Positions 756 to 53,338 of a DNA stretch of 64,000 nt are shown in pieces. The position numbers and the translations under genes are program-made. A model generated the notes under the pieces. It did no database searches, was not told where the DNA came from, and worked only from the letters and a program-made list of their open reading frames with translations. The number at the start of each line of letters is the position of its first letter. The stretch's first letter is position 1. This DNA comes from Negaprion brevirostris (taxonomy: Eukaryota). Where the stretch lies: the NCBI GenBank assembly GCA_030324005.1, contig JARDVH010000124.1, positions 55,519,447-55,583,446 on the forward strand, given 5' to 3'.

Positions 756-813
756 CTAATTAAAAACAAATCGCAATGTGGTATACCCAGAGGTGATCCC
801 ACTGGCTATAAAT
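756..813 (+). promoter_or_regulatory. Proximal promoter of GPCR gene A: homeodomain-like CTAATTAA (756-763), O/E-like ACCCAGAGGTGAT (785-797), TATAAA (807-812)
   Basis: TATAAA lies 87 nt upstream of the ATG at 894. The same motif order and similar spacing recur upstream of genes B and C. Confidence 0.55.
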
Positions 814-893
814 GAATAGATTCGGGAATGCATCACCACGGGTTTTAATCCAGGCAGATTAACAGGAACGCGAAAGGCACATCGCAGGAAATA

Positions 894-957
894 ATGGAAA
901 CAATTGATTTGATGATGAGAATATTATATATTTTTCTTGCTGTGCTAGGTGTTCCTG
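894..957 (+). CDS. GPR139/GPR142-like class A GPCR gene A, exon 1 (METIDLMMRILYIFLAVLGVP plus G, phase 1)
   Basis: ATG at 894, start of TM1, donor CCTG|GTAAGT at 957/958. The 64 nt join in frame to the acceptor at 4606 (G+TT = Val). Confidence 0.9.
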
Positions 958-1759
958 GTAAGTCATTACAGCCACCAACGATATATGAACCTGTTGTCTG
1001 GTTTAACGCTGTGACTGATCCGCATTCTGTAGATACACAGTCATTACTGATATTTGCTTCATACAGACTATCTCTGCGGTTTTATCTCATTTTCGTAACG
1101 TCTAAAAAACACGTTTTGCAATTCACCAGTTTTCTAAATTCCGAACTTATTTTAGTTCTGCATTATTTTGTCAGGGTAAATCTGACCTCACTGAAAATCC
1201 GTTTTTATATCAAAAATAATGTATATATTGGAGAAAAGTAAAAAAAAAAGTCATTAGCTCGAATGGCATTTCTGAATCCACTGACTATGTATTTGGGGAG
1301 TTGCATTAAATTGTATTTAATGAGATTTTGCAACACATTGGATGACTGGTGATTTGATGAGTGTATATTTGTGGGGAGTGTCCTCTCCAAAACCGAGTGG
1401 AATATCTAGCCACAGTGATCATATATATATCAGGTTATGTGCTCATAAAACATTGAACAGACTGAAACGAATGAAATTAAAAACGAGTTTGTTTTCCGTT
1501 TTGTTTCTTCTTGACGAGGGATCCTTTGATCCATGGAGTTGCCTAAGCTTTTTAGGATTGTGAGACAGAATACATTTTGATATTTCGTGAAGAAATTGTC
1601 TAATTATGATGAAGGGAGTCATCTTGATACTGTCCTGAATTGTAAATAACTCTTCCAACACAAGCACAGAAGAACTAACTCCAGCCGTTTAGAAAATTTT
1701 GGTAGGGTTTAACAGTAAAGTGGACTACTATTTAAAAGGCAAAATAATGCAGCACGTTT

Positions 1760-2456
1760 CTCTGCAGAGGAACCTGGGTGTCCTTGTGCCTGAATCACAA
1801 AACATTTGGTTTTCAGGTGCAGCACGAAATTAATAAGACAATTAGGTTTTGTCCTTCATTGCTGGACGGATGGAAAAAAAACAGCGAGATATAAGGTGTT
1901 GGTCAGACTACATCGAGAGTAACATGTACAGTTTATTTTCTCCTTGCTTGAGGAAGGATACACTGGCATTGGAAAGAACATTCACTGGGTTCTATCCGGA
2001 GTTGAGAGGGTTGGCTTTTGCGGACAGATTCAGTAGACTGGGGAGATAGTCATTGGCATTCAGAAGAACGAGAGGAGGTCTTATGAAAATATGAAAGGTT
2101 ATGAAGGGGAAAGGTAAGATAGAAGCAGTTAAGTTGACTCAACTGGCGGGCAAAACTGGAGGACATGGCCTCAAAATAAGATTTAGGAAATAATTGAGGA
2201 GGAATTTATTCACGCAAAAAGTTGCAAATCTGTGGAACTCCCTGCCCAGTGAAACGTTTGAGGCGACCTCATTCATTGTATGTTTTTTAAAGACAAGTAC
2301 AGGTACAGTTTTGAGCATTAAATGAATTAAGTGTTATGGTGAGCGAGCGGGTTAGTGGAGCTGAGTCCACAAAAAGCTCAGCCATGATCTTTTAGAATGG
2401 CAGAGCAGTCCCGAGGGGCCTGATGCCCTACTCCTGCTCCTGGTTCTTATATTCTT
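1760..2456 (+). mobile_element. CR1-type LINE 3' fragment in the gene A intron
   Basis: Degenerate RT C-terminus (…SPCLRKDTLALE…), then TGTGGAACTCCCTGCCC and a 3' tail ending CCTACTCCTGCTCCTGGTTCTTAT typical of CR1. Confidence 0.75.
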
Positions 2457-4199
2457 GTGTTGATTACATCGAACAACACGCTTGCCCTATGTCAGCACAC
2501 GTTGTGTTCTGATTTTAAATTCATTCCTCTTCAAAAAGACATGCAAAGCTTTATCTCTATTGTTCTCGGCTGTGTTATTTTGTTTTTTGTAGCTTTAACT
2601 GATGTGCAAATATGTAGAGCTATTTGCAATCCCAATTCAGGTTCATACTTGGATAGAGCATTCAGAATACGCTATTTCCATCAAAATGCAGCTTCTGACA
2701 CTTAGCGATACATAAATTAACTTACATTTGATGTGCCAACTGTTCACGTTTGATCATTGTTTTTGCTGTGTACCGATTGTCGTTCCTCTCTATTCTCTCA
2801 ACTCCCAATTTGGAAGCTGTCTTTTTACAGCCTGATTGTATTTTCTGAATGGAAATGTTAGAGATCGTGGTTCTGATGCTTGAGGAACACCAGTTTCCTT
2901 ATTCGCATATCTGATAAATTTCCCTTCTCATCCCTACTTCCTGTTTCTTGTTTCTGAAAAGTATAATAATATAAATTCTGCTATTTGCTAGCGAAATGCT
3001 TTGAACTAAGGTTAGAATGTGAATATTATTTACAGATTATACAGGTTTTTTCGGGAAAAAAAACTCATTGGCATCATTTTTGTAATTCGGATCTACAATT
3101 ACCGATTATGATTTAGAGAATTTGATAAAGCATGCCACTACTTGGAATATTTGCTGACTGCTGTTTATCAGGTTCTCAATGTTTATTATATATCTGTTCA
3201 AATTATTCCACCAAAAAGTGACGATTGTTTGACTGTCGTTTAGCTATTTCGGTTGATCGAGTGTTTTATAAATATGAAGCAGCATTTGCCGTTTTCCATG
3301 ATGATATGGTTTTGTTGTGATGTCCAGTGTGCATAAGAGTTCTCCTCATGGAGTAGGGGTTCCCCTATTGAGCAAACAGAGGTTCATTAATAAGGGTGAA
3401 ACAGCGGGAGTTTAATAACCAGTCTCTGCAGTGACCACGGGGTGCTGGTCGCGGAGATTAGAATTGTGTACTGTAGCTGCAGGAAGCAGAAATCCATTGA
3501 CTGTGGAAACAAAAGGGTGCCGGTGGTGAAAATTGGCTGCGGTGAGATCATTACATTCGAGCGAGAAGGAGTAATGGTGTTTTTCTTCCTTCATCCCTGT
3601 GGACATCAAGACATGGAATTCTCTACAGGTATGAAAAAGAAACGCCTCTCTTGGCGAACTGAAGCCAATGATACAGAATACAAGACCCAATACGGAGACT
3701 GTAGACAATACATTGTTCTGGTTCTTAATATTGAGGGATATGACAAGCAAAATGTCATCATGCTGATGGCATGTGGGTTCTCAACAGCCTTATAAAAACT
3801 TTGACCTACCCAGATGCCTTTGACTATAAGACGTTTAAATAGTTAGTCGACTCGGTTTTACCTATGATCCAAAGCCCTATATTTCCCCTAGTGATACGGT
3901 TTGAACAGAGTAGTGCTAACCATTGTGGAGTCTGTGAATGATTATTTGACTGGTTTGTGAACGTTTTCAGAGCACTGCGAACTCGTTCACAGGTGACCAA
4001 TATGTTTTTAGACACATTGGTGTTTGGGATTCAGCGTGACAACTCAAAACATATTATTGCCAAATCCCAACCTCGATAGAAGAAAAATCTTTCAGATAAC
4101 TGCATCACAGGAGAACACAGAGAAAATAATTCAGGTACTAAAAGGACGTGAGATAGTAGTGTTCACCAATCGGGGGAGGGATCGAGTCAAAATTTATTC

Positions 4200-4545
4200 T
4201 CCAATTGAGAATGATTGCTGCCTATCATTAACCAAATTGCCACACTCTAAATGTTTATACATCCCATCCCTAAGAATCCTTTCCAACAACTTCCTGACCA
4301 CTGATGTCAAACAGACCGGCCTATAATTACCCGGTTTATCCCTACTACCCTTTTTAAACAACGGTACCACGCTATTCTCCAGTCCTCTGGGACCTCACCT
4401 GTGTCCAAAGAAGAGACAAAAATTTGCGTCAGAGGCCCAGCAATTTCATCCCTTGTCTCCCTAAGCAGCCAAGGATAAATGCCATCAGACCCCGGGGATT
4501 TATCAGTTTTAATACTGCCTAAAAAGCCTAACACTTCATCCATGA
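4200..4545 (-). mobile_element. CR1-type LINE ORF2 fragment just upstream of the exon 2 acceptor
   Basis: Minus strand translates IKTDKSPGSDGIYPWLLRETRDEIAGPLTQIFVSSLDTGEVPEDWRIA, matching the CR1 ORF2 KSPGPDG…VPEDWR motif. Confidence 0.85.
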
Positions 4546-4605
4546 CAGACAATAAGGATGTGTATTCCCTAATTTGCTTTATCTTCCCATCTCGTTTTTT
4601 TGCAG

Positions 4606-5519
4606 TTAATTTACTTGGGATTCTGATCCTGTCCCGGAGAAGGTGTGGCCTCTCACTCTGCACTACTTGCTACCTCATCGCCATGGGAGCGGCAGATCTG
4701 CTGGTCATTGTCATTGTCATCATCCTGGCCTACATCAATTATTATTATTTTCCTGTGAGTTTTCTGTACATCACCCCTGTCTGTTCTGCTCACGCTATCC
4801 TAATCGGTGCAGCCAGAGACTGTTCTGTCTGGTTCACCGTCGCATTCTCATTTGATCGATTTGTGGCCATTCGTTGCCAGAAATTGAAAGCAAAATATTG
4901 CACTGGCAAAACTGCAGCTGCAATTTTAGCAACGACCAGCATTTTCCTCTTGTTAAAAAATATTCCCTTTTACTTTACAAAGGAAGCTGTGTTTGTATTC
5001 CGCAATGTGGCCTGGGGCTGCACAACAAAGTTAACCTCTTTTTCTGATCCTGGATGGGTTGGATTTCAATGGGTTGATCAGATTATAAATCCGTTGCTAC
5101 CATTTGGTTTAATTCTGTTGATCAACACTCTGACAGTCAGGCACATTTTAGTGAGCAATCGTGTTCGTAAGGGCCTGAGGACTCAATGTAATGGAGAAAA
5201 CACCAACGACCCAGAGATAGAGAACAGAAGGAAGTCAATCATTTTACTGTTCAGTATCTCGGGCACCTTTATACTCTTGTGGTCAATCAATGTTGTACAA
5301 TTTGTGTATATCAAATTTATGGAATTATTTTCCATCAGCAATTCTGCATATATATTACAAGATGTTGGAAATATGCTACTCAATATAAATTGCTGCACCA
5401 ACACTTTTATTTACGTGGTCACCCAATCCAAGTTCAGAGCACAAATCAAGTTGGCTTTGAAATATCCATTCACATCAATTATACAGAGACTCAAACAATC
5501 AGGTAGCTCAAACTATTGA
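4606..5519 (+). CDS. GPR139/GPR142-like class A GPCR gene A, exon 2 (spliced protein 325 aa, intact)
   Basis: Acceptor TTTTTTTGCAG|TT. Motifs VNLL, YLIAMGAADLL, DCSVWFTVAFSFDRFVAI, KYCT, NPLLPF, ENRRKSIILL, NCCTNTFIY, TQSKFR; seven hydrophobic helices; TGA at 5517-5519. Confidence 0.92.
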
Positions 5520-6064
5520 ATGGCAGCGGCTCCATGAACCAGGGAGCTTAATTCACTCTCTGTCATCCCCTGCAGCCAATCAGGTGGATATTCCGGCACG
5601 TAACATTCACCTTGACAACTTCCTCATTTCCCAGCGTCGGACCTGAAGTTACCTCAAAGAAGAATTTTGGAATGCCTCTCAGAATTTCCCAGGAATTGTT
5701 CAACCGGAGACCACCTCAGAAGTGTATATTTCCCTGTAGAATTTGTCTGCGATGAGAACTATCTGACAAAGCAACTTAAACCATGAACAATGAATGGTTT
5801 TAACATTCTCAGAAAATGTTGAAATAAAATGAAACATTCCTAACTTACGTGAAAGTACTTCAAGCACCCGGAGAGTCCCACACTGTACACTCCCCAAACA
5901 CGCAACCAGCAAGGCAATGACACACCAAGACTTGGACAACTATTGAGGGTTCGTGCCCCGATGTTGGAGTCTCCTCTGAGGTCCAAATACAGAAAATTCC
6001 CGACTATGCCTTATATCCGGAAAAAAAAAACAAACTTCTGCTTACTCCAATAGCTGATCCGTAA

Positions 6065-6600
6065 TATCTGATCCCCCAATATCTGAATTCCCAAACATCT
6101 GGCACTCCCAATATCCAAATCATCAAATGTCGGGCACCCCTGATATACGAATGCCCAAATGTCGGGCACCCCGATATCCGAATCCGCAAATATCGGGCAC
6201 TCCTGGTATGCGAATCCCCAAATGTCGGACACCTCTGATATCCGAATCCCCAAATGTCAGACACCCCTAATATCCGAATCCCCAAATGTTAGACACCCCT
6301 GATATCCGAAACCCTAAATGTCAGGCACCCCTGATATCTGAATCCCCAAATGTAAGGCACCCCTGATATCTCAATCCCCAAACGTCAGACATCCCTGATA
6401 TCCGAATGCCAAAATGTCAGACACCCCTGATATCTGAATCCCCAAATGTCAGACATCCTTGATATCCGAATCCCCAAAGGTCAGACACCCCGGTTTCCGA
6501 ATCCCCAAATGTCTGACACCCCTGATATCCAAATCTCCAAATGTCTACCACCCTCTGCTAGCCGAATTTCCAAATGTCAGACACCCAACGTCTGAATCCT
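6065..6600. repeat. Minisatellite, 32-bp unit (CTGATATCCGAATCCCCAAATGTCAGACACCC), about 16 copies
   Basis: TCCGAA recurs at 6241 and 6273 (period 32). Units degenerate toward both ends. Confidence 0.9.
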
Positions 6601-8689
6601 CAATGGTCCAGCACCCCATTGATGTCCATTAATTCCAACGCTTCTCAGTGTTGTCCAACTCTTCCTCATGCACATTTCTTTCTCCCAGGATTTTCTGACT
6701 CCTCCTCTTATGTCTGACCATTGCAGATATCCAGCGGACAGCCCCAATGTTGAACTCCAACCAAAAGCTGGCTGTTCACAAATTAGTCACTGTGATGTTA
6801 GTCACGAGTGGCAAACTACTGTTGTCCTCCACCTTGGAAGTTACAGGCAAATATTGTCAGACAAGTTGAATCCTGAACGTTGACACTATTAAAACCCTGT
6901 TTTCAGAAGTCTCAAGCAGTAAATAAATGAACCACCATCACTGGGGTGCTGTGACCCATGTTGGTGGTATCACTGGACAGGACGATCCCAGGGTGGAACT
7001 GTGTTTCAATGGATGATGATTTTTGTTTTTGTTTTATCAAGCATGAAGGAAAACCAGTTACACAGCCTCTCTTAATATTTAACAACAAAACGTGTCACTT
7101 GTTTGACGTAAGGGGATTCAGAATGGCTTGGAACTAGAGACCATCAAATCAGAGTAGATAATATTGGAGTAGATGAGATACTGAAGGAGCAATGCAGCAT
7201 TCGAAATATTCTGCTTGCATAGAAGTACATATAACCACTATTAGAAAATTTAGACGTGTGTTTTTGAAAGCATATTCCGTAAGAAAAACACATTGTGTTG
7301 TAAACAGCATGATGTTTGTCAGACAAGATGGGGCATAATAAAGTTAAAACAAAAAACTACATTCCTTTAAAAACAATATACTACTGAGGAAAGGGGAAAA
7401 ACATTCTTATCAGTAGTCTCCACACAACCATTATGAATGAGATGCATATTGAACAAAGGACATTGTATGAGGGAGACTGGAAATATCTGGGGACTATGAG
7501 TCAGACCCTTTAAGTCCATGAGGTAAGTACACAATCAAACGTTGCACAGGAATAGGTGTTATTGGCAAAAGTATCAGATCTTTACTTATAATGACTGGCC
7601 GATTCCAAACTGTTCGAAGCAATCCCTTCTGAAAATTACAAAATAGGAGAACGAAGAGTTGATTTCAGAGTTGATTTGACAATCTCGGAAAATAAAGAAA
7701 TCTTTCACCAGAGTAGAGTCTCCACGAGGCTCTGTGCTGGCTGATCCGTATTTAAGATGGACAACCCCTCACCTCGAAAGCCAACATAATACTGAATCTC
7801 TGAAATGCACTCCGATATTAAATATCAAGAAACATCTTACCACAAAATCCTGCTTGACTCATCGTTTATCTTAACACTTATACACATGTTTAAGTTTAAC
7901 ATGATCAGGAAGACATTTGGAGCTACAACCATTTCATCAGCATCCAAAGTCATTAAATGCCATTTTCCCCTCAGAATCCCCCTCCAGCCTAACAGGGATG
8001 TCTTTTGAGTGACAAAAAACTCCACTCCAGGAAATCAGCTTTAGCATCTTCTCGCATAACAAAATATTCACTCAGTGATCCACATTCCAAAATGTGGCAC
8101 ACGATTTCCAACAGACACAGATGACTAGACCATCCAACCACCATTGAGAGCGATACTGTATTTCCNNNNNNNNNNNNNNNNNNNNNNNNNNNNNNNNNNN
8201 NNNNNNNNNNNNNNNNNNNNNNNNNNNNNNNNNNNNNNNNNNNNNNNNNNNNNNNNNNNNNNNNNAACACTTTGTTGTGGTCAAACTCTTAACAGGATTA
8301 TTTGGTGAACACAATTTTTAATGTCAAGAACAATTCTACATTTTTGTTTACAGAGACTGTAATAAAATATGTACTGGACTAGCTTTCAGAGAGTTATTTT
8401 CTAGTAGTTCTCATCCATCGGTCCGTTGTTAATTTTCCTAGTTCCCAAAGTGTATGTCTGTTTTCCAATGAATCAGGCCACTTAAATTCAGACGTAACAA
8501 AATTTATTTTATTTTCACAACGTGCGGGATAATCCAAGATTCCCTATTCGTGTTTTCTTTAGCACTCTCGTCCCCGCTACCTGAAAATTACTCCATTATC
8601 AGTTTTCAGTTGAGATCAGACCTGACAGATGCATCCAAACTCCCTTGCAGTCTCCGGCCCAAACTCATCTGTACTGACTGAAGAGAAGA

Positions 8690-9300
8690 GGGGATGGAAG
8701 AGGGAGGGAGTTACGGAAAGAACAGAAAACATCAAGATATAAACAAATGGAATAGCAGTCGCAGTGACAGATGGTGTGTGCCGGGGAGAGAGTGGCAGTG
8801 GAAAAAAAAGAGTCAGGGTTTGTGATGGGAGCAACTGTGAGAGATGTGGGAATGAGTGTAAGAGAGTGGTGGTGGCACAGTTGGTGATGATTAAGGCAGA
8901 ACGGATGGGAAGGGAAGAAGGTAGATGGATGAAGGAGGGAGGGGACGCCGATGGGAAGGCAGCGTGATGAAAATATGCAATGTGCACACTTTCTGAGAGA
9001 TGCACCTGAGCAATTCTGAGCCCGTAGAAAATGAATCTGTTATTGACAGGGGGAGAGAGAAGTGGGGGGTGGGGGATGGTGGTGGTGTATGAGTGAGATC
9101 GTGAGTAAAAGAGAGCGTGGACAGATGAGAAGGAGAGAGGGTAGATAATAGAGTGGAAGAGGCAGGTGGAAAAGGCAGTAACAGATATAGAACCAAATGA
9201 GAGAATATCAGGTGGAGAGATTTATCGAGGCAGAGAAATGTTTCCAGTAAGCAGGAGTGCAGATAGAGAGAGGGAGAGCGAGAGGGAGGGAGGTTAATTG
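8690..9300. repeat. GA-rich polypurine low-complexity tract
   Basis: Strong G/A bias on the + strand, with no clear coding signal. Confidence 0.6.
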
Positions 9301-9639
9301 AACACAATTCATGTCATCAAAAATTCCAAGCATCTCCACAGATTTTTAGTAAACGGGATCTTCACACCAAACCATGGTGATAGTATAATGAGAAGGATTG
9401 CAAAGTGCCAGGCAGTGAGAGAGGCTTGAGTGACTTACTAATGGACTTCAGAGTTCTTCAGCCAAGTAACTGAATGTTTCAAAGGTAGAGTGATTGAACA
9501 TTGAAAAAAAAAAGAAACTGGATTGAAATAGAGGTGCACTGATACCCTGGAAATTTGAAGGGACTGGTGGTGGATACGCAAATGTTTCCATTGCTGATGG
9601 AGTATGTCCATCCACAGATGTTTGAATGAGCTTCAGGAG

Positions 9640-10280
9640 GTAAGGAGTTTTGCGGATCTGAAGCAATTTTTAGAGACATTGACAGCTGTCTGATATGTAA
9701 AGTATTATAAATCTGGAAATAATATTAGCCAAGAATTGATAGTGTTAGGTGAGATTATAGTCTAAGTGGGAGATTGCAGAGTTGAATGGATTTTAGGACA
9801 TGGAGCAAATGGCTATGTTGAAGTGGGGTGGGGTGGTGGGTGGGGGGATGGTGGTGGGCGGGTGGGTTGAGTGGAAGTGTGCAGGTTGGAAGACGTTGCA
9901 GATGCCTGTAATTTTGTGGGCCTGGAGATGTTTCCTGAAAAAGTGATGATTGAGGACATGGAGGATTGTGAAGTCAAGTCTGTGTTTTCAAGTTCTGTTG
10001 TTGCTCTCTGGGAAATAATGCAGCTCACAGAGTGAAGGGACTGTTTGCTTAATGAGAATGTGCGTGAGTTTATTCACAAAATTGAATGATAATGGCAATG
10101 AGCCTGGAACATGAATAGTCGAAGATTGGGCAGGATTGCTTTGGTATTGTGGATACTGGAGGAGACAAAATGGGTTAGAGAAATCTTTGAAACAGCTACA
10201 ATACTGTTTCCATCCTCGGTGGTCGGCCTCTGCTGTCCGCCTGCCCCCTGGACTAGGTTTAACCAGTCCTGGTCAAATGG
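9640..10280 (-). other. Diverged, frameshifted copy of the unidentified block at 30403-31030 and 38890-39487
   Basis: Shares GAGTGAAGGGACTGTT, CTGAAGCAATTT and GTGAGATTATAGTC with the other copies. Peptide SQSSMSSIITF…PTKLQ resembles LQPSISSILTF…PTKLQ. Confidence 0.55.
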
Positions 10281-11109
10281 CCATTATCATTGCCATTCAC
10301 ATATTATTCAGCAAAAACAAGCTCATATACAAATTTATTCAACTCAATTGGTTCCTGTAGCTCCCCAGGAACAATAACAATAACAGCATTTTCCTGACTC
10401 TGTTAATTGGCCGATACTGTTTTTCTCTATGAAGTGAACCTGACCTTTTCTTCAAACAAGCAATGGTCCCGAATTAAATGTAAGCTGATATTTTTCCCAT
10501 CCAATAACTTTATGCCCTGCAGGACCTCTCGGAGAGACTGATATTGCAAAGGGTGATTTGAAGTGTTGGGATTTAATTGAAATCTCCAGGTCTCACAGAC
10601 TGGGCATATCCAGGCATATTTTGAAAATCAGAAACAGTGTTAAACAGCGGTAGATATTTCCATGTCAACATCATGACTCCCTTCACTTCTCATATCGTTT
10701 GAGATGACAACTCACTTTGACTGAGCATTCGTTTATTAAATCTCGACTGTCATAGTGTCCTTTGGGATACTCAATATTCTGAAATGTGAGGATTCTGTTC
10801 TCCTGGATAAATTCGATTCAATAATTAATTTAATCAAACTAAATCTAATTTTTTTGGAATTCAGCATTTTGTCATTTGCTCTGTCTTGACAATGCCTGCT
10901 TTCTGGCAGGTCAACACAGCTAAACTCACTCTCCACCCCCCCACCCCTTTCTGCTGGAGCTGACACTTTCAGTTGTTTGTTCCGTTTGTTTCTTATGAAA
11001 TCTATCTTCACTCTCAGTCTCTTCATTTCCGATCCAAAACAAATGCCCTTTTAATCTATCTTTCTGTTTAATCCGCCGTTTGGATCAATTGGAAATCTTT
11101 TGAAACACG

Positions 11110-12990
11110 TGTCATAGAGTCATATATTCATTTAAGGTTTTAGCATGGAAATCGGCCCCTCTGTCCAACATGTCCGTGCTGTTTAGGTATTGCCATTACA
11201 CGAATCTCAATTGCCCGCGTTTGGTCCATGTTACTGTATATCAATCTTACTAATATCATGGACTAAATGTTTTTAAGAAAATATTGTACCCACCTCTACT
11301 ACTATCTCTGGTAAGTCGTTGTAGATACTCAACACCCTCTGTGAGAAAAAAAAAACTGCCTCTCTGCATCCATTGTTACCTATTCCCTCTCACTTTAAAC
11401 TATGCCCTGTATATTTTTTACCCCCCAGCATTGGAAAAAAAAGATGTTGCCTATTTATGTTGATTGATACTCATCATGATTTTATTGATACCGATGAGGT
11501 CGCATTGAAGTCTCCAATACTGCAGGGGAAAAAAAAAACAGCCCCAGTCTACCCAAACTCTCTTTGTAAATCAAACATTAAGTATCGGTCCCATTCCAAT
11601 AAATGGTTACTGCCCTCCTCCAATTTTAGAAATACATCTACTGTAATAGATTGACCAGAACTGTACACAGTTTTCCGAATGTGGCCTTACTATTGTATTG
11701 CACAATTTAAACAAGGCATCCCAAATTCTGCATTCAAATTTCTGGCCAATGAAAATAAGAATGCCGAATGTTGTATTTACCAACCTGTCCACCGCTAGCT
11801 CCACTTTCTAGGTGCTAGATCTCCTCGGCCTCTTTGGTCTATAATTGTCTCAACATCCCACCATGAATTGAGTAATCCTGCTTTGTTTCAAACAAATAAG
11901 ATGAACCACTTTGCATTGATTTAAATTCAACTCCATCTGTCAATCCCCAGACAACTGGCCCAAGTGATCAAGATCCTATTGCAATCCTAGATAAACATTC
12001 CTCGCGGTACATGAAGACATCAACCTTGCTGACATCTGCAAAATTACAACATCATCTCTTAAATCCCTATCCAAATTATTAATACAAATGACAAGCTACA
12101 GTGGGAACAACACTGATCAGTGAGGCACACCATGGTCACAACCTCCAGTTTGAAAAACAACCCTCTAGGACCACCCTCTGCATCCTGTCATCAAACTAAT
12201 CTGTTCAATTGGCTACCTCACACTGGATCCATAAGATTTAACCTTATTCAACAACCTATTGTACAAAACATCGTCAAATGCCTTCTTGAAGCCCACCTAG
12301 GCAACCTCGACTGCACTACAGGTATCCGTATCCCATTTGTAAGAATGCTACGGACGTGAGACTGAAAAGTCAGTGCTTCCCAAGCTTTTCATTGCAGCTC
12401 TTGTTAAAAAAAAGCACAACATTTGTCATTCTCCAGTATTGAGGCAACTCACCTGCTGCTGCCAATGCTTCAGATATCTCCGCTGTGGAATCCACAATTT
12501 CCTCCCTAGTCTCCCACAACTTCTTGCGACACACTTCATCTCGAGCCAGGGATTTATCTACCTTGATGTGCTTTAAGACTTCCAGCACCACCTTCTATAT
12601 GATATGCGCAATCCTCAATACATTACTATTTCATTCCCAAGTTCTCTAACATACACGCCTCACTCATGAATAAGTGTCTCTTTTTTGCCCTGTTGATGTC
12701 TTTCTTATCTCTTCTCTGACAACATCTGCACTATTAAAGTTGCTCACTTGATCCCAGCTACCTGTGCATGTCATATGCCTCCTTCTTCTTCTTTGTCAGC
12801 ACTTCAACATCTCGAGACATCCATGGTTGCCTAGTGCTCCCAGCCATGCCCTCTGCTTTAAAATGCATGTGCTTACCCTGAAGCCTGGATAACAAATTTC
12901 TGAAAGCCTCCCGGTTGCCCAACATGCCAGCCGAGAGAATTCCCCAATCAACTTTTGAAAGTTTCTATCTAACACCATCAAATTGGCCTG
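11110..12990 (-). mobile_element. Degraded CR1-type LINE (3' tail near 11110, RT remnants to about 12600)
   Basis: Minus-strand remnants IVRPHSENCVQFWS and HIKVDKSLARDEV…GELPQYWRMTNVVLFFNK; tail-like GGAAATCGGCCCCT at the low end. Confidence 0.75.
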
Positions 12991-13379
12991 TCTCCATTTT
13001 AGGATTTTAATATTTGGGTAGGACTATTATTGTCTGGAATGGGTATGGGGGAAGGGGATGAAACAATGAGGAAAGTGGGATTTTGGAAGTGGAAAAAAAA
13101 TAATATAACACAACTAAGTTGATGAATAACATAGAAAGATAGAGTGAAGTCATATAAATGGAAATGGACTGAAGGTGAAGGTAACAATTCATCCTCTTAA
13201 TATTCCACCCTAACTGAATATTCCGTCCAAAGGTTGTAAATAACCTAATTGGAAGATGCTGCACCCGCAGTTTCTGTTAAGCTTCAGTGCAACATTGCAA
13301 AAGGCCAAGGACGGATATGTGGACAGGAGAGTCCGGTGATTCTCATTCAGTGGATCACCCTCTGCCGTGTCTGCCTTAA

Positions 13380-13561
13380 CCAGCGTGATACCACCACTCA
13401 ACAGATAACTCCTTTCAGGGCCTATTCTCTCCAGAACACCCTGGTCCACTCAGCAATCATGACATTGCAACACCTACCTGTTTACCTCCTCCTTGCTCAC
13501 CATCCCAAGTCCTAAAAAACACTCATTTCAGGTAAAGCGGCGCTGCACTAGCACCTCCTTC
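13380..13561 (+). mobile_element. Penelope-like element fragment (region just before the GIY-YIG domain)
   Basis: Peptide TIPSPKKHSFQVKRRCTSTS resembles the fish Penelope-like 'IQGPKQSFQVRQRFTCTS' segment as I recall it; cut by the gap. Confidence 0.5.
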
Positions 13562-40329: not shown

Positions 40330-41650
40330 TCCACAGCTTATATCAAAGGATTCGGGCAGGTTCAGAGAGTGGACAAAGAAATGGCAGGTGAAATACAGTG
40401 TGGAAAAAAAGTGAGGTCCTGCACTTTGGAAGAAGGAATGGAGACATAGACTGTTTTCTAAATGGGGAATGCTCAGGAAGTCAGAAACACAAACAAACTT
40501 GAACAGAGAACAAATAACAAGGAACAACTCAGCACGGGAAACAGGGCCTTCGGCCCAACGAGCCCGCGCCACCGTCTTAACATTGTGTTTTTCCTCCTCC
40601 ACCCTTGACCCATGTCTATGCTTATGGTACCACATTGGAAACCAGATTCAGGGGAGTTATTGTTCAAGATTTGCTTAACGTGCAGATTCAGTCGGCAGTT
40701 AGGAACACAAATGTAGTGTCAGCATTCATGTCGCAAGGGCTAAAATACAAGAGACGTGATGTTCTTGTCAGACGGCCCTGGTCAGACCCTATTTGTAGTA
40801 TTGTGAGCAGTTTTGGGCCCCTTATCTAAGGAAGGATGTGCTGGGCTTAGGAAAGGTCCAGAGGAGGTTCACGTGAATGGTCCGAGGAGTTAAGAGTTTG
40901 TCACATGAGGAACTGTTGTGGGTTTGCACTCATCAGAATTTGGAAGGATGAGGAGGCATTCCCTGAGAAACTCCTTTGGATTGCCCCCAATGTTAAGACA
41001 CCCTTTTAAGGTCTGGGACCGAGTCTGTATGTGGAGATGCCAGCGTTGGACTGGGGTAAACACAGTAAGAAATCTGACAACAAACCTGGTGTTGTCAGAC
41101 GTCTTACCGAATCTGTACGCAGTTTTCCAGGTGAGGCCTCAATCACGCCTCCTGCAATTGTGACAAAAGCTCCCAATTTTAAACCCCCAACCCGCTTGCA
41201 ATAAAGCTCAAAATGGTGTTTTCCTCCTTAACTACGTGCTGAAGATCCCTGTTATCTTTTAAGATTCTTGCCCTCAAACCAAAGTCCCGCTGAATTTCAC
41301 TCACCTCCAATTTCTCTCTGTTCAGATAATAATCTGTCCTTTGATTCCTCCTGCCTGACCTCACACTTGCCAAAATGAAACTCCATTTGCCAGGTTTTCG
41401 CCTTGTCAGCTAATCTATCTAAAATCATTTGCAGAATCACAGCTACCCCATCAGAATATGGCCTTGCATCTGTCTTAGCATCATCAGCAAATTTGGTTAC
41501 CTTCCTCAAGGCCATGAATGTAAATTGTGAAACATTGCGGGCCTGCACTAGTTATGTCTTTGCGCTGTGAAAAGGAACTGTTTAACTAAACCTTCTGGTT
41601 TCTATGTAATAGTCAGTTTTCAGTTCACACTAACTCACTTCCTCGAATTC
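40330..41650. mobile_element. CR1 fragments (+ then -) with a Penelope-like fold-back remnant at 41030-41110
   Basis: Paralog of 31860-33200; KFADD motif on the minus strand. Confidence 0.7.
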
Positions 41651-41899
41651 CGTTTCATTTATTTCAGGCACCATCTTTCTGTGAAGTTCCATTTCAAATG
41701 CCCGGATTATAATAACTGAGGTAGACACAGTGTTGTGTTTACTCAGGTAAGCACTAGATTGGAATGATGTAGATAGTTTTGAACCGGGTTTTCTCACACA
41801 AGATCTCGATTGAAATCAAGAGACGATCAAATGACCACCAAATATATTCAGAAACCTGGCCCCTCATCTTTCAGTGATACAGATTCCAGTTTCACCATT

Positions 41900-42895
41900 C
41901 TCTGAGTGCTGGCTCAGATCCAGAGATGCAAATCTGTCCGGACAAATTTTCCATGGCTTGTGACGATTTTAGACTCGCCATCAACTTTAAAAAGGCCAAA
42001 GTCCTGCACCAGCCTGCTCCTCATGCACCGTACACAGAACCCATAATCACAATCAAAGGGCAGGAACTGCAAGCAGTAGACCAGTTCACTTATCCTGGCA
42101 GCATCCTCTCCCAAGCAGTGACTATTGATACAGAATTTAATTGCAGAATAGCAAAGGCAAGTTGTGCTTTTGGTAGACTTCGCTCCACTGGATGGGAGCG
42201 TTGAGAAATCAGCCCAGCAACAAAACTGAAGGTCTACAGCGCCACGGTACTCACTACCCTCCAGGATGCCTGTGAAACGTGGACTGTGTATCGAAGGCAT
42301 GCGAGACAGTTCAATCATTTCCACATGACTTGTCTTCGCAGAATATTACACATCAGATGGCAGGACAAAGTAACAGATCCTGAAGTTCTCTCTGGAGCAA
42401 GTCTACTATCAGTCCAGACACTGCTGATGAGAGCCCAGACCCGGTGGACAGGTCATATCATCCGTATGTCAGACGAGCGCAAACCCAAGTAGCTCCTTTT
42501 TGGGGAACTCTCTGCTGGAAGACGCTCCCATGGAGGGGAGAAGAAACGTTTCAGAGACACACTCAAAGCCTCGCTGAAATCACTGGACATAGACATGGCC
42601 CACCTGGGAAACGCTGGCACAAAACCACCCTACGTGGCGCTGCCTCATCCACAAAGACTGTCAAGCTCACGAAACAAGGTGTATTGCTGAAGCAAAACTT
42701 AAGCACGAACTGCGCAAGTCCAGAACCACCAGTGGAACAACGACAGTGTCTACAGAAGTCTGTCCAGTATGGGCCAGGACATTGCGTGCCGGTATTGGTC
42801 TGATCAGTCATCTTTGGACACACCACAACCAGCCTCAAGATGACTAATGGTGTCAATGCCCTCATCGATGACGGTGGGCGAACAACAACGACAAC
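41900..42895 (+). mobile_element. RTE-clade LINE, 5'-truncated, copy 2
   Basis: Same RT C-terminal motifs; shares the TGA (42202) and has an extra TAG at 42490. Confidence 0.9.
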
Positions 42896-45300
42896 ATTTA
42901 TGTGAGAAAGAACACAGAGAACGATCATGATGTTCATCTGAACTTTGCAGATTGGACCTGCAAACACAATCCAACGAGCCAACTGCAGCAGTGTCGGAGC
43001 ACCGTATCTGATATGTGTTCAAGAAGCAAACGAAAACATCAGGATTTCTTCTACACAAACTCTGTTCTTTATTGTCTCATATGAAGTATATTTTAATGGC
43101 TCCGGGAGAAATGATCTCGCCAACAAGTGATCATGCAATGACATACATTTCACATGTGGAGACACGAGTTCCCACATTGCGTCAATAAACCTTGAGGTAT
43201 GTTGAAAGCCAATAAACACGATGATCCGTGAATGAACAGCAACATTATTTGACAAACCGTACCGAAAAAAACGGTTTGATTTCGACACTCCCTGCTAAGA
43301 AAACATAATGTATTTTTTGTAAAAAGAAAGCCATGCCGACCAATATAAACCAAACGGCTGAAGTAGAACATTACCTTGAGGCAAGCAGAACAACCATTCC
43401 TGAAACGGCGATGCTATCCTCGGCAATACCAGAAAAAAAAAATTATATATGTTTACAATGAAGAACTACCATTTAATCTGAGTGGGAACAAAATATGTTT
43501 TACTCTGGCACCAACACAGATTAATTCCAGAGTTTGGTAGGTGCTGAAGTGCTCACTGAAGGGAGTAAACAGGATTCTTGCAACTCCAAATAATGTTTTT
43601 CTCTGGGTCCACTAAGGCTGATAGCTCTGAGTCCGGGTTCACACTCAGTTACTCTTATGCAACTCAGATTATGTTCATATAATCATATAATCATTTCATG
43701 TCACAGTACAAAGGGGTCATGACAATCTGCCTCACTTGAATTCACAAATGGAAGCGACCTCCCAGAGAAGGGTTGCAAATAGCCAGACACGTAACAACAC
43801 AAAATCAAGGCTGACAGAGCTGGTTTCATCAACACATTCTTAGCACCGGGAACATGCTAGTTTCTGCGAATTAGCAGAATAGTCTCCAGAGACCAGTGGA
43901 ACAATGCCACTACCGTGAGCGATGATCTACACCATATACACGTTACGTATTTTGTTTCTCATATTTCAATATGATGCTCAATGCTTTTTAATGTAGATGA
44001 TGCCCACACAATTGAGAGTACAATTTATTTTCATATCGGCTGCTCAACCTCATTCCGTCCTTCAATCAGATCCTGCGATGCATTGGACTATCTCAATTCT
44101 CCCATTCCAGTCAGGTTTAGAGTGTAGATGAGATCAAATGTGGTCTCTGTTCCATACAGTTTTGCTATTTCTTTCCCCATGATACTGATCTGTATGCACG
44201 ACAGGCGTCCTGACTGATTCGGCCAGACAGTTCGCTGGAAATGTTGTAGTAATCATGGAAACTTTGGGGAAATGGCTCTCTGAGTCTCTCTCGGGCACTT
44301 GGACAGTTTCTTCCCGAATTGACTTGTAACTAAATCACTAATGATGAGGCCAGTTTTCTTTCTGTGTTTGTGCCAATGATTAATCCAAATGGAAATCCAC
44401 TAGAAGAGGTTAGTCAATGCAAATAAATTGGGTTCGGGGTGAAAGACATCAGCACCCTTGAAGCAGAGCTCGAAGCATCTATGGGGAATGTAGCCAATAT
44501 CTTCTAACAACTCGAACACGCGTGCAGGGTAACATGAAACTGGGACTTAAGACCAAACTGCTGTTTAATGACGAGTATATTCCGGACACCAAACACAATG
44601 GCTATGGAAAAGGGGCTACACATAGCGATCTGGAATTTAATTTGGCTTCTGTTCATCTGCTCGCTCGCCATGGGCCTATGCTGATTGAAAATCAATGATA
44701 AATTCAGAACTCTAACAAAGGAAGGACTTGGACTTTGAGTGGGAATTATTATATCGAGACAACTTAGGAGGATGAAGTATGGCCACGGGATGGAAGATTT
44801 TGGTTACATGTGACCTCCTGCCTGGCGAGTCAGCCACAAAAAAAGGCAAACTCGTTAATGCTCCAAACATTTACGAATGCCGAATATACCGATAGAAAGA
44901 GCGAAGTAGTGACACCACGTTTGAGGTGGCGTCCATCATGGCATTTGGCAGTGATTGTAGGACCTTGGGAAAAGGCACCAAAGTCAAATATTAAAACCAG
45001 CCATGTCAATTCACAACGTCAATATCACAGTTTGTGTAGGATCTGCCTCTGAAATACCGGTCCTGACTGACATCAGCAATGGTGCAATAAATTAAGAGTG
45101 TTTAATTAAGCGCATTGCTTCTTCCCTGCATATCATATCTCACAGCTGGAAGGAAGTATTCACGACCGACATATACCAAGTAGACAGGGAAAATTCTCAG
45201 TGACTTCATTGCAGTGTAATATAAGCCTTACATGTGACTAATAGATAAATACCATTCCAATATATTTGTGTTTAGAATGAGGCGCACCATTCCCGCTGAG

Positions 45301-45445
45301 ACATAAGAACTTAAGAACATAAGAAATATGAGCAGGAATCGACCATTTAGCCCTTCGAGCCTGCCCCGCCATTCAATAAGATCATGGCTGATCTGAAGTG
45401 GATCAGTTCCACTTTCCCGCTTTCTCCCCGTCACCTTTCATTCTT
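45301..45445 (-). mobile_element. Short CR1 3'-tail insertion
   Basis: CATAAGAACTTAAGAACATAAGAA…GCCCTTCGAGCCTGCCCCGCCATTCAATAAGATCATGGCTGATCTG; close to the copy at 56649-56790. Confidence 0.75.
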
Positions 45446-46159
45446 CTGTCTTTCAGACACCTAATAAGTCATCATAAGTAGATTAATCTGATATATTTTT
45501 ACTATGTATCTTCCCTTTTCTCCAATGTAACTTATGTTTCCTTTAGTTTTTCTTGATGCACAGCTCCAAATGCTCACTGTTCATCATTTAAGCAATATTG
45601 ATTGATGTCATATGAAAAATGGACCTTCCCCATTCCTCTGATCTTCCCGTTTTATTGTCAAAATCACATTTTCACGGACAGTGCCCGTGAATCTATACAT
45701 TGTAGTTTCCATGACATTTATTTTATGTTGCTCTTGATTGCACATTTTGGCGAAGCCCATACACAGAACATGAACATCTATTTCCCTGCCAGCCATGTCA
45801 GGTACTACAGCAATGACCTGACTAAGTTCATCAAATAATATTCCATTCATATATTTGTGATGATTATCATTTATTACATGTCCTTTACAGACAAAAAGTC
45901 TTGTTGTATTTATTTGTGGCCTCTCGAGCTTCATCAACAACATTTGACCAACAGGCTGAGTTCACAAGTTTCATAACCTTTCATCTTTCCATTGAAAAAA
46001 ACACATCCTTAAAAAAAAAATCTGTATAAATTCACGTTGGCCCAGTTTGCCAGTGAATACAGTATTTCCTGTCTCCTTTCCCTCAGCAATCCGATGTTAT
46101 CGACCACTTGTTTATGATGGTACAAAATAGATTGGAAGGGGATAAACAAACCAGTTTGT

Positions 46160-46425
46160 TCAGCAACTGGAATTAATGCCATTCTCCCTGGAATCCAGCC
46201 GTGCCTCTGGAGAGTCTGTCACGTCTATTAATAGTTCAAAGAATGAGGGATGGTTCAGGGTCTGAGAGCAACAGACTCGCATTTTACAACATCGGGTGAG
46301 GACCTGAGAACAGTCGATTGAATGGTTCAACAGCGGATCAGAATCTGAGAACAACTGATTGGGAAGTGAAACAAAATGGAGGAGAATCTGAATATGACAG
46401 CCTGGAATGTTGCAACATTGGACAG
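46160..46425 (+). mobile_element. Possible 5' end of an RTE-like LINE (endonuclease start)
   Basis: LNMTAWNVATLD resembles the AP-endonuclease N-terminal 'IGTWNVRTL' motif; short and degraded. Confidence 0.35.
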
Positions 46426-46620
46426 ATCTTTATCCGGGGCTCTTTACGCTCTTTTCAGTTTTTACAAAAACATGTCACCTTTATGGCGGCTCGAATGCAT
46501 CCTAAAAGTGATTCAAGCTGGTTACTATCCATTTCTCGCCATCATTGGTGTACCAAGTAAGTAGTTATAAGCATTTATTATTTCTATTAACAATGTTGAA
46601 CTACAGTGTTTGTGTATTTC

Positions 46621-46740
46621 CTGATGATGGATCACCCAGGCTCGGAATGTTGGATCTATTCTCTCCCCACAGATGCTGCCAGGCTTGCTGAGATTTCCCA
46701 GCATTTTCTGTTTCTGTTTCAGATTCCAGAATCCACAGGT
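46621..46740 (+). mobile_element. Penelope-derived short repeat with a hammerhead-like core
   Basis: CTGATGA…CTCGGAA followed by CCACAGATGCTGCCAGGCTTGCTGAGATTTCCCAGCATTTTCTG, a motif I recall as common in chondrichthyans. Confidence 0.45.
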
Positions 46741-47344
46741 TTGCCTTTAACAATATATTGAATTATTGGGTTAGGGGTAGGTTTAGGGTTAGATTTTGGG
46801 AACACTGTATCCATTGTCTTCAGTGATCCTCACAATCTGTGCTTTCACGCCCACTGATTCCAGTCCTGTCGCAGAGCAGGAGCTGAGGTCTCCCCTTTGA
46901 CACTGAACTGAGTTTAAATCCCAGGTCATCTCAATCATTAATTTCGCTTAATAGCATTTTGGTAAAATCAACACTGTATTGTGTATATATAAACACAACG
47001 TGACGTTAAACCCTTTACAAAACGTTCTGCTTCTCTTCCCTGCGGTGAGATAACATTCCCACCTTCACCACTTTGTCCATTTAACTGCATAATTCCTCTT
47101 CCCTGGAATAATTTGAGAGAACGAATATGTACATTCTGCAAAACGTTCAGCTCCTTCAATTTTTTTTTGTATATTCACAAACAGTGCATTCACCCACCGT
47201 CAGAAAGCCTGCCGTAACATCTCTGAAAGTGTGCTGAGGATGCATCACTTTGTCAGAATCTCAGTGCCAATCTGGCATCCAAAATATCTTCCATCCTATT
47301 ATGTGTCCCATGACCATAGCTGTTCATGTCCAACTCTGTAAGAT

Positions 47345-47415
47345 ACAAAGAACAAAGAACACAGAACAACACAGCACGGGAAACAGGCCCTTCGGCCCAA
47401 CGAGCCCGCGCCGCC
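47345..47415 (-). mobile_element. ~70-bp LINE/SINE 3'-tail insertion
   Basis: AAAGAACAAAGAACACAGAACAACACAGCACGGGAAACAGGCCCTTCGGCCCAACGAGCCCGCGCC. Confidence 0.7.
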
Positions 47416-47539
47416 GTCCCATTGTCAGTGACCTATTCANNNNNNNNNNNNNNNNNNNNNNNNNNNNNNNNNNNNNNNNNNNNNNNNNNNNNNNNNNNNN
47501 NNNNNNNNNNNNNNNNNNNNNNNNNNNNNNNNNNNNNNN

Positions 47540-48266
47540 TTTTGATAATTAAAGTTGACCAACTGCCAACCTAAGGAATGTACAAGGTGTGGCATCCATA
47601 GTAGTACGAAATTCGCTGAAATGGCGAACAACAAGATCATGGACTTCCTCCTGTTCTCCATCTCTGGATCGCAGCCATTCCCACAATTCCTCCGAAGACC
47701 CTTGCGCAATCTATTTGATGCCAGAATGTGCCGCACAGTTAAGATATTAAAAACCACAATGAGCACGATTGGTAACAAAGGTGTTAAAATGTTGTCCATG
47801 CACTGGTACACTTTCCAGAAAGGTGAAGTCCAGTAGCTTGATTTTCCAATACAGTACCATGGAACATTGTCAATTACAACAACAGGTCTGTATACGAAAA
47901 ATACAGGGACACTTCTTAAAACGCTCCCCATACAAACCACAGATACAATCACAGTCGTTCCTTTAATGGTACAATACTTCTGTTTAAAATTTTGATAACA
48001 AATTGCAATAAAACGATCAAATGTAAAAGCTGCGGTAAACCAAACAGAACAATCAACAGACACAATAGACAGCACAAGCCTGATAGTACAAACAGGAGTA
48101 ATGAACAAAAAGCTATTAGGCAAAAACATGTGATTAATTCTGTGCATGATCACGTCAGTGATAATCAACATGACATCGGCCACTCCCATGACCGTTAGAT
48201 AGGAAACGATACATTTGGATAGACCACACTTTCCACGAGAAAGAACCACGATGGTCATCAAGTTAA
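47540..48266 (-). CDS. GPR139-like GPCR gene C, exon 2 (TM1-TM6; 3' end lost in the gap)
   Basis: Acceptor TTTAACAG|TT. Motifs GKCGLS, YLTVMGVADV, DCSVWFTAAFTFDRFIAIC, TPLLP, DPEMENRRKSMILLF, FVLLWMP; frame open up to the gap at 47539. Confidence 0.88.
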
Positions 48267-49589
48267 CTGTTAAATGAGAAGAAATATGAGAGTTTGTTTT
48301 TCATTGAATGTTCCTCTGGGGGAAAGGTGTGCGAAAATTACGCATTGATTATTCCTGTTCAATTATGTGTTTATAGTTAACATGTTCTCTGGGTAACGCC
48401 CGCTTTGTGCAGCATGATGCAAACAAAATCTGACATGACAAAGTCGAACAAGCTAAAAGTTAAATTCAAGAGAAACCTTAGAAACGAGAAAGTGACAAAA
48501 TAAAGGGAAACATCGTAGGTTCATAGGCTCAGAAAAAAACTGTAAAATTAACATATATTGAAGTGTAATGTGGCTTAAAGCAAAAGCTTCGCAAACTGGT
48601 GTATCATGAATTGAAACGTGCAGACAAGCGAGTTTGAAGCATGGTCACTGAGAGATTAAGAAAGACACTTCCATAAATAAAAATAATTCATCAGATATAA
48701 TGTCCAACTGACAGGTCTCAAATGAAACATACACAGAAGAAAAAGAAAACTGCAGAGCTCCGGGGGAAACAAGTGGAATCAAAAGAGAAACTGATATTCG
48801 ACAAACTGTATAAAATAAGACAATAATATTCTAGACACTGCTGGAATATTATCGCATTTACAATTAACACGATGGATATCAAAGACAGGTAAACATTTAC
48901 TCTGCTTCGTCTAACAATAATTAAACAATAGTTTTGTGAAGAAAAGGTTTGCACGAAGTTGTGAACAAACAGTACCTCTTTCACTGATTTTTTTTTTAAG
49001 TGTTCTTGCAGTTGTCATGTTTTTAGCTTCACGCTACACATTTTAAAATTTTTGGCCTATTTCAGTATCAATGTTCAAATATTATTGGGATAGAGCAGGG
49101 GCAGAATTAATTATTTCAGATAAAATCCGGCATGCATTTCTGACATGAAGAGAAAATGTTTTTTTTTTTTTTAAATTAGCAACTTGAACACTTTGGGAAA
49201 CGATGTTCTTGTTTCTTCCTTTAACAGTGGATATAAATGTCGTCTAGCATGAAGAGGACATAACTTAAGAAGTCAGTAAATATCTACCGACATAATATGA
49301 CGAACCTGTCAAGTTTGGTTCGAGAGTTTCGACAGCACAATAAAAAAAAACATGGAGTATTCTTCTTGTACGGACAACTGAATAATCAACAGCTATCAAA
49401 AACAAAAACAGGCGATATCATTAAAAATAAATGATCCTTGGAAAACAAAAAGCTGAATTGTATGAATAACCAACTGTAAATTATGAGAATACTGCAGAAA
49501 CATACAATGTGTTATCGTTGCAGATGGGAAAGCAGCGAGAAACAGTCAAACAAATATTTCAAATTCGAAAGCTTAATTCAAAACATTAC

Positions 49590-49659
49590 CCGGAATGCCA
49601 ACGATTGCAAGTACAGGATAGTAAATGCGTTCAATCTGATAAATGACTGGCAGATTCAT
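49590..49659 (-). CDS. GPR139-like GPCR gene C, exon 1 (MNLPVIYQIERIYYPVLAIVGIP plus G)
   Basis: ATG at 49659; 70 nt (23 codons + 1); donor CCGG|GTAATG; joins in frame to 48266. Confidence 0.88.
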
Positions 49660-49740
49660 TGACTGAGAGGAGAACCAAAAACGATGGTGTCATAAGTAAA
49701 GTGCTCACTGAGAGAATACGTTCACTTTCCAGCACACACC

Positions 49741-49775
49741 TTATTTATAACAAGGAAAATCATCAAGGGAATTAG
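49741..49775 (-). promoter_or_regulatory. Proximal promoter of gene C: CTAATT, TTCCCTTGATGATT and TATAAAT
   Basis: Minus strand reads CTAATTCCCTTGATGATTTTCCTTGTTATAAATAA; the TATA is about 85-90 nt from the ATG, as in gene A. Confidence 0.55.
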
Positions 49776-52590: not shown

Positions 52591-53338
52591 TGCATACTGG
52601 CAGCGATGTTTGTTTTGCCATTATTAATCAGTATTTGTGCCATGACTATATTTGCCTCTCGTCGTTGATTATCCGAGCTCCGATGTTGCATTTTACTGTT
52701 CTCTCTTTATTATTGCTTTTCGCGTTTCTCTTTTCGGTGTCACACAGTTTGTGTCCCCATCAACTTGCCATTCTGTTTTATCCCTTCCTAACCACACTAT
52801 CAAATCCTCACCGCAGGACAGGATTTCCCGTCCCGGCCAGGTACAACACGTTCAGTTTGTATTGATCTCACCCTCCCCCAGCACCGCCCCCACTCCCCGT
52901 CCCACCACCCCCACACCCCCTGAACCAGTGCCAACGTCCCAGGAATCTAAAACCCGACACCATAGCACCAGTTTCCCAGCCAGGTACTCAGCTGATATTC
53001 CAGCAACATTAACTTTGCCCAATAGGAGGAGCTGTTAGTAACTCTGAAATCACCAGATTTGAGGTAATAATTTTCAGCTGACTACCTAACCCCCATAATC
53101 CGCTTTTTGGATTTTTTTTTTAACCGACTTGATTAATAACAATGCAAATCATGACAAGTGGCTCTTCAGCGCCACCTGCTGACTATCTTCCAACTGCCCT
53201 GATAAACTCTTGACCCGAACACCAGGGGCGCAACATCCCAGCCTGGAGTATTGTTTGCGGCCAAAGGAATGCCTTCCAATTTCCCTGACGTTTGAATCTC
53301 AAATAAGGATTGTATTCCCAAACTTTCTGCTTCTATCT

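Follow-up and report, generated by a model that had tools for sequence, protein, structure and literature searches.

Do the receptor genes clustered in a 64,000-nt stretch of the genome of the shark Negaprion brevirostris (contig JARDVH010000124.1, forward strand; the whole stretch is called the window below) share a promoter element, and does such an element indicate the cells in which the genes are expressed? The window is a gapped scaffold with 13 N runs, and it houses a cluster of two-exon genes for class A G protein-coupled receptors (GPCRs; 7tm_1), with four genes (A to D), one additional promoter copy (B') and two receptor remnants in 64 kb. An earlier note on this DNA had described a paired O/E (Olf-1/EBF) and homeodomain module upstream of these genes and had suggested expression in olfactory neurons. 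The analysis reported here indicates that genes A, B and C probably have a core promoter under constraint, in which an upstream element stands at a fixed distance from the TATA box; this judgement refers to the core-promoter element of the family, and the factor and the tissue are judged apart from it.

The promoter element, the TATA box and their spacing

The promoter features are located as follows (distances are from the ATG unless stated otherwise).
786-797, plus strand: conserved element of gene A (CCCAGAGGTGAT), -108
807-813, plus strand: TATA box of gene A (TATAAAT), -87
26314-26326, minus strand: conserved element of gene B (TCCCTGAGGTGAT), -111
26295-26304, minus strand: TATA-like element of gene B (CATAATTAAA), -90
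26268-26274, minus strand: initiator-like TCAGATT, putative start of gene B, with its A at +32 from the TATA start and 0 mismatches
49758-49770, minus strand: conserved element of gene C (TCCCTTGATGATT), -110, one base shorter than in A and B
49743-49749, minus strand: TATA box of gene C (TATAAAT), -90
26680-34940, minus strand: B', an 88-89% copy of the region upstream of B, on its own contig, flanked by two gaps, and cut by a gap just beyond the TATA element
26705-26718, minus strand: element of B'
26687-26696, minus strand: TATA element of B'

The four strings quoted in the earlier note and its three TAATT coordinates were all present in the sequence. The CCC of the element precedes the TATA-like element by 21, 21, 21 and 20 nt (A, B, B' and C, respectively), in agreement with the distance of about 20 bp that had been given for the four copies. 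The distance to the ATG was also near-constant (CCC at -108/-111/-110 and TATA at -87/-90/-90 in A/B/C), which is a second fixed spacing, absent from the earlier note. When the window was searched for CCC followed by 17-18 bases and a TATA-like heptamer, a pattern written post hoc, exactly four sites were found, namely those of A, B, B' and C; the probability of a TATA-like hexamer inside a given 7-base window is 0.003-0.006. The initiator consensus is YYANWYY, and the initiator-like site of gene C, at +32 from the TATA start, has 1 mismatch.

The "promoter-only" copy, previously taken as a separate case, proved to be an 89% copy of B cut at an N gap. B' begins at the first base beyond the gap, 7 nt past its TATA element, and is 88-89% identical to the region upstream of B across about 8 kb. 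The true upstream region of B resumes at 35041, with an exact 77-nt overlap (26503-26579 equals 35041-35117). Judged from this overlap, the contig at 26680-34940 that carries B' is inserted out of place, by an assembly scramble within 26580-35117. B' is a misplaced or paralogous contig truncated by assembly, and might carry the promoter of D. As a gap-cut copy of B it is not independent and its missing exon is uninformative; the treatment of four promoters as independent was thus ruled out, and n=3. The 14-bp element is identical in B and B'; a full match of this length has a probability of about 20% at 89% identity. Exact 77-nt flank overlaps were also observed at gaps 24936-25035 and 49853-50329.

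The module had been said to stand upstream of every visible gene. This went too far, since a scan of the window for exon-1 donors revealed three only (A, B and C) and none for D, whose promoter lies outside the window; exon 1 and the promoter of D are predicted about 1.8-1.9 kb past the window end. A match to CCCCTGATGAT at 63977 was rejected as the promoter of D, given that no exon 1 or TATA element follows it and that the paralogous B intron position differs.

The description of the surrounding DNA as not alignable holds for C, whose global alignment with A or B failed, but not for A versus B, which align colinearly beyond the block (50/80 in the 5' untranslated region (UTR) and 44/79 upstream). 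A second block common to A and B, AAAGG..AC.CATCGC, was observed in the 5'UTR at 866-884 (+) and 26228-26245 (-). The translation of this block, in B-like form, recurs in two mis-extended protein models of horn shark and basking shark (P0055, P0056), which suggests that the UTR is conserved between species. A and B also share CTGAACT, about 187 nt ahead of the ATG (706-714, +; about 26393-26401, -), and a second upstream element is possible there. Among the 237 proteins of relatives that were read, with those bearing long extensions inspected, no mis-predicted N-terminal extension reaches the promoter element.

Probable constraint on the element and its candidate factors

Three sites matched CCCWGAGGTGAT, a pattern picked post hoc, with up to 1 mismatch in the window (A, B and B', all exact), compared with 0.76 expected, and 3 of 100 shuffles reached three. 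The A and B elements were identical at 14 of 16 positions (P=0.018 unanchored and 0.0017 anchored, with 600 shuffles and 600 random regions), and P values of 0.002-0.07 were obtained at widths of 12 and 28. In a held-out test, a 28-bp profile of A and B placed the C site 12th among 122,344 positions; the first six rows belonged to A, B and B', shifted duplicates of these sites included, and C was outscored by five unrelated sites. When the TATA part was removed, the C element was still recovered above chance relative to random 7-position windows (P=0.004-0.036 in 6/6 settings), and among 95 other TATA-like sites, 0, 0, 0, 1, 1 and 4 reached the score of C in the six settings.

The match in C spans a deep split. 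In a 45-row tree, from which true GPR139 was left out, C joined members from stingray, sevengill, horn shark and zebra shark (99/99), and A and D fell in a separate clade (100/100). Fourfold-site identity was near saturation for A-C (12/41) and D-C (14/42). Since C groups with ray and sevengill members, apart from A and D, the split between C and A/D predates the elasmobranch ancestor, which is older than 270 million years (My) (PMC11979771).

Several results weigh against a constrained element. The pairwise comparisons A-C and B-C were not significant, with P of 0.05-1.0 in 12 settings and 1 of 24 values just below 0.05. The strong match in C requires a one-base gap, the initiator of gene A is poor (3 mismatches at +31), and the independent promoters (A, B and C) number only three. 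The A-B match may in part be residual homology; the fourfold-site identity of A and D, with D as the proxy for B, was 42/79, which indicates moderate divergence only. At 55% identity, 14 or more matches of 16 have P=0.007 for one fixed window, uncorrected for the choice of the best window, and the A-B 28-mer gave P=0.06, which is not significant.

For the O/E site, the consensus motif is YYYCARRRR (that for the homeodomain site is TAATKR; PMC5638857), and the O/E matrix core is TCCCyngrga (PMC3247239, Table 1). YYYCARRRR was found in one of the three independent promoters (B, 26318-26326, + strand; also in the copy B'), so that the O/E match claimed earlier was exact in B and B' and failed in A and C. 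In the window it has 106 matches versus 134 expected, and it is present in 29% of 5,890 random 190-mers. TCCCyngrga, used as a consensus rather than as a real matrix, has 2 mismatches each in A (in shifted register), B and C, and two-mismatch cores of this kind occur at 6.2 per kb, or in 60% of random 190-mers. On the opposite strand, the in-register half-site reads GGGA in B and C and GGGT in A, and the conserved letters run beyond the 10-bp EBF palindrome into TGAT. The EBF core matches of A, B and C are at background frequency. The in-register half-sites speak for EBF as the factor, and the extension into TGAT and the shorter site of C speak against it; EBF/COE, bound through one good half-site, is put forward tentatively as the single likeliest factor.

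Two TAATT sites lie outside the TATA elements.
756-763, plus strand: TAATTA upstream of A, -137; it fits TAATKR and has no counterpart in B or C at this position
49770-49775, minus strand: CTAATT upstream of C, -115; it overlaps the T of TCCC and fails both TAATKR and the composite spacing

The third, in B at -88 (26297-26302), lies within the TATA element and was therefore counted twice. TAATT occurs in 38% of random 190-mers. TAATKR was found within 190 bp in A (-137), only inside the TATA element in B, and not at all in C, with a background of 2.3 per kb. The 190-bp promoters have GC fractions of 0.43/0.42/0.38 (A/B/C), compared with about 0.43 for the window, and relative to it are not notably AT-rich. 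In the published Lhx2/Ebf composite, YAATTA follows the EBF 10-mer after one base, a geometry derived from one probe, and EBF sites in composite motifs tolerate purine/pyrimidine substitution (PMC5608512). A scan of the window with a degenerate version of this composite gave 9 one-mismatch matches versus 9.49 expected, none of them in a promoter. Judged by these positions, a separate Lhx2-type site is outside the conserved unit. The adjacent homeodomain sites of the earlier note therefore lack a fixed position (-137, -88 and -115), and the paired module lost its support, with no conserved homeodomain position, no composite geometry and EBF matches at background, so the motif gives no grounds for inferring olfactory expression.

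It is improbable that the TATA box alone is constrained, with the A-B block as leftover homology and the C match as chance. A and B do align across the whole proximal region (56-65%, versus 53% at fourfold sites), the pairwise tests with C are non-significant, and four unrelated TATA-like sites beat C in one of six settings; however, the held-out P values of 0.004-0.036 extend over all six settings, no unrelated TATA-like site reaches C in three of them, and the 14/16 block contains no gap and keeps its distance from the TATA element. A splice signal can hardly account for the block. On that reading, an upstream non-coding exon would use AG|GTGAT of A and B as its donor, or CTAAT, pyrimidines and AG would form an acceptor in C. 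GAG|GTGATT resembles the consensus of splice donors, and in C a pyrimidine run comes after CTGAC/CTAAT, but C lacks GT, and with the candidate acceptors ahead of the ATG in A and B the introns would be as short as 61-96 nt, with 4-8 pyrimidines among 14 positions. No single splice reading fits the three genes, whereas a TATA box plus initiator does.

If the element is functional, the factor and the cells have to be considered. An olfactory receptor (OR)-type module of O/E (EBF) and Lhx2 homeodomain sites, driving the receptors in olfactory sensory neurons, appears doubtful. The exact YYYCARRRR of B, the GGG[A/T] half-site with a two-mismatch core in three promoters, TAATT inside 190 bp in A, B and C, and the substitution tolerance of EBF (PMC5608512) are consistent with it; YYYCARRRR in 1/3, TAATKR outside the TATA element in 1/3, the background frequencies of the cores and of TAATT, the absent composite geometry and a GC content not notably below that of the window are not. 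A different factor acting in non-olfactory cells, be they gut or endocrine cells, leukocytes or sensory cells of another kind (taste, skin, lateral line or electroreceptors), has a reasonable though minority claim; with EBF as the factor, B cells would also be possible. TGAT(T) is conserved outside the EBF palindrome, and the GFI1-type consensus AAATCAC fits about as well, with 2/1/1 mismatches of 7, versus 2, 2 and 3 of 8 for EBF. The E-box CAGGTG has 1/1/2 mismatches of 6, and CNTCTGG (PMC3247230) has 0/1/2 of 6. Catshark TRPC2+/Go+ neurons with robust V2R label, and OR and V2R expression outside the nose (PMC11979771, PMC10116579), also fit another tissue. Against this, the alternative motifs are so short that chance matches are just as likely for them.

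The explanation we prefer is that A, B and C retain the ancestral core promoter of an orphan class A GPCR family expanded in elasmobranchs. It would consist of a 12-13-bp element (CCC-W..GRTGAT) 20-21 bp ahead of the TATA box and a start about 30 nt beyond the TATA element, followed by some 55-58 nt of 5'UTR and by a first coding exon that is short. A sequence-specific activator, possibly EBF/COE plus a partner on the TGAT flank, would bind the element two helical turns upstream of TBP, and purifying selection would preserve the element because the activator binds it. Copied with each duplication, the element could give the family a common, cell-type-restricted expression. Were this reading true, a family-wide peak at TATA-21 with a TCCCNNGGGA-like logo would be expected.

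The receptor family and the locus

The name "GPR139-like" used in the earlier note was a nearest-name label, and the receptors are not GPR139 orthologues. The match of D to human GPR139 has an E value of just 1.8e-6, close to that for the ghrelin receptor (4.8e-6); GPR139 is the best PDB match, and the Atlas neighbours are 7tm_1 clusters, some of them named Srw or FMRFamide-receptor. A search with D yielded 1,338 clusters (90% identity) at E<=1e-10; all 119 named ones among the best 120 were from sharks, one was unnamed, and horn shark accounted for 75 of the 120 listed. In a second search, 119 of the 120 matches listed were from named elasmobranchs and one was unnamed, and a 24-sequence profile recovered 134 clusters (50% identity) at E<=1e-30. 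Judged from these searches, A-D belong to an expansion that is confined to sharks and rays among the matches listed. The closest outgroup with a name is a conserved, single-copy, GPR139-related gene that occurs in coelacanth, sharks, ray-finned fishes, amphibians and reptiles; it forms a separate 100/100 branch and is 27-30% identical to A, C and D. No mammal or bird was found among the 120 matches listed for it (P0343, P0383-P0500), and it may be the GPR210 of PMC6504862. Two models of this gene are fused to TMEM183A, which suggests synteny.

The length of exon 1 is kept family-wide, as the motif falls at residue 33-35 in 104 of 165 proteins with the motif (170 examined). Variability was analyzed in 171 rows, namely D and 170 of the 237 relatives (300-345 aa, named). 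Positions 3.28-3.36 of the pocket in transmembrane helix (TM) 3 carry 10-16 residue types, and the extracellular helix halves are more variable than the intracellular ones (1.83 versus 0.66 bits, p=3e-13, relatedness ignored). The TM6 position of the GPR139 Arg, which we take to be a ligand contact, is mostly Tyr in the family. The family thus shows hallmarks of chemosensory families: a large, tandem, lineage-specific expansion with remnants, and a variable pocket with a conserved cytoplasmic face. Pocket variability is typical of chemoreceptors and is also found in immune and somatosensory GPCR expansions and among GPCR paralogues generally.

The family proteins are present in NCBI under an automatic name. 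No description of the family or its promoter was found in the searched literature, outside which lay subscription journals and some supplements, nor in the accessible portions of PMC10620051, PMC8455134, PMC12208981 and bioRxiv 2025.06.08.657570; the supplements of the preprint, which list tandem clusters, were outside coverage.

The gene models in the window are as follows.
894-957, plus strand: coding exon 1 of gene A, 64 nt, phase-1 GT donor
4606-5519, plus strand: coding exon 2 of gene A (7tm_1)
26148-26214, minus strand: coding exon 1 of gene B, 67 nt, phase-1 donor
49590-49659, minus strand: coding exon 1 of gene C, 70 nt, phase-1 donor, followed by an intron of 1323 nt
47540-48266, minus strand: coding exon 2 of gene C (7tm_1), cut through by an N gap; subfamily common to rays
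59147-60048, minus strand: coding exon 2 of gene D (7tm_1), the only visible part of D
31754-31870, minus strand: receptor 3'-end remnant (TM7/helix 8) in the B' upstream copy
40226-40408, minus strand: paralogous receptor 3'-end remnant in the true upstream region of B

Gene A is complete and intact, with a spliced coding sequence of 326 codons including the stop. Exon 2 of gene B is absent from the assembled sequence and would lie in the gap at 21449-21548, a 100-N gap that hides this exon plus about 7 kb. The introns of B and D are about 90% identical, and identity over the intron and 3' flank is 86-92% (20087-24380 versus 52615-54394 and 61201-64000); by this measure B and D are recent duplicates. 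An out-of-frame upstream ATG was seen in the putative 5'UTR of C, in the 49681-49683 region (-); it opens a short reading frame extending across the main start.

Immediately downstream of gene A is a 32-bp minisatellite with 15.9 copies (6079-6586). A retroelement gag-protease fragment was found at 55880-56587 (+) (zinc knuckle, E=0.017; aspartyl protease, E=4.9e-5). Frames resembling long interspersed nuclear elements (LINEs) were noted by eye at 33404-34198, 41878-42803, 4307-4669 and 57241-57819; the four frames tested, with 41878-42803 not among them, gave no Pfam match.

Tissue, function and known promoters

The use of the family would, by a slight preference, be chemical sensing, divided among many receptors whose pockets differ. 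The size of the family, its tandem clustering and the variable pocket make the olfactory hypothesis reasonable, and olfactory neurons are the leading single expression site, albeit as a possibility held with reserve. Other observations speak against olfaction. Extracellular variability is common in GPCR paralogues and so does not single out olfaction. According to PMC11979771, no GPCR is among the top 50 genes of a catshark brain and olfactory library, which is weak evidence because known V2Rs are missing there too. Catshark olfactory neurons are all TRPC2+/Go+ and robustly labelled by V2R probes (PMC10116579), and catshark OR and V2R genes are frequently expressed outside the nose (PMC11979771, PMC10116579).

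The literature credits cartilaginous fishes with small numbers of olfactory receptors and of GPCRs (PMC10116579, PMC8455134). Conceivably, the "probable GPR139" of the databases is a large, overlooked olfactory family of sharks and rays, which would have its origin in the GPR139/142-Srw superfamily, separate from that of OR, TAAR, V1R and V2R, and would have acquired an EBF-type promoter element over 270 My ago. If so, the horn shark family (at least 75 clusters) would exceed the known catshark V2R repertoire (34 genes) and would overturn the view of a small, V2R-dominated smell repertoire in cartilaginous fishes. If the tissue is non-olfactory, the family still represents an unexplained major expansion. 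The promoter motif alone is modest evidence, and the larger lead is the receptor family: an expanded family whose pocket varies and whose core promoter is common to both sides of a split older than that of sharks and rays, which raises the question of a fifth receptor family behind shark smell or another chemical sense.

Among known receptors, GPR139/GPR142 belong to the same broad superfamily as A-D. O/E plus TATA promoters of chemoreceptor clusters are already known (PMC12547500 among the sources). The Greek Island composite (PMC5608512) resembles the shark element in its degenerate EBF-like sequence, one half-site of which is good, but it marks enhancers, and its YAATTA geometry is absent from the promoters of A, B and C. 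Mouse OR promoters (PMC3247239, PMC12547500) likewise belong to a clustered GPCR multigene family and are short and proximal, with O/E-like sequence near the inferred start and, in a subset of them, a TATA box. In contrast to them, the shark element stands at a single fixed TATA distance and extends to a conserved TGAT; the shark genes have no positionally kept homeodomain site, their O/E sequence is weak in two of three, AT enrichment over the window is lacking, and exon 1 is coding. Mouse V1R promoters (PMC3247230) belong to an unrelated receptor family but share O/E-like sites near the start and CNTCTGG, which is exact in A, with 1 mismatch in B and 2 in C, and their homology, similarly, is wide within subfamilies and none between. 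Since O/E-like sites also occur in V1R promoters, an EBF-type reading of the shark element would be compatible with microvillous neurons.

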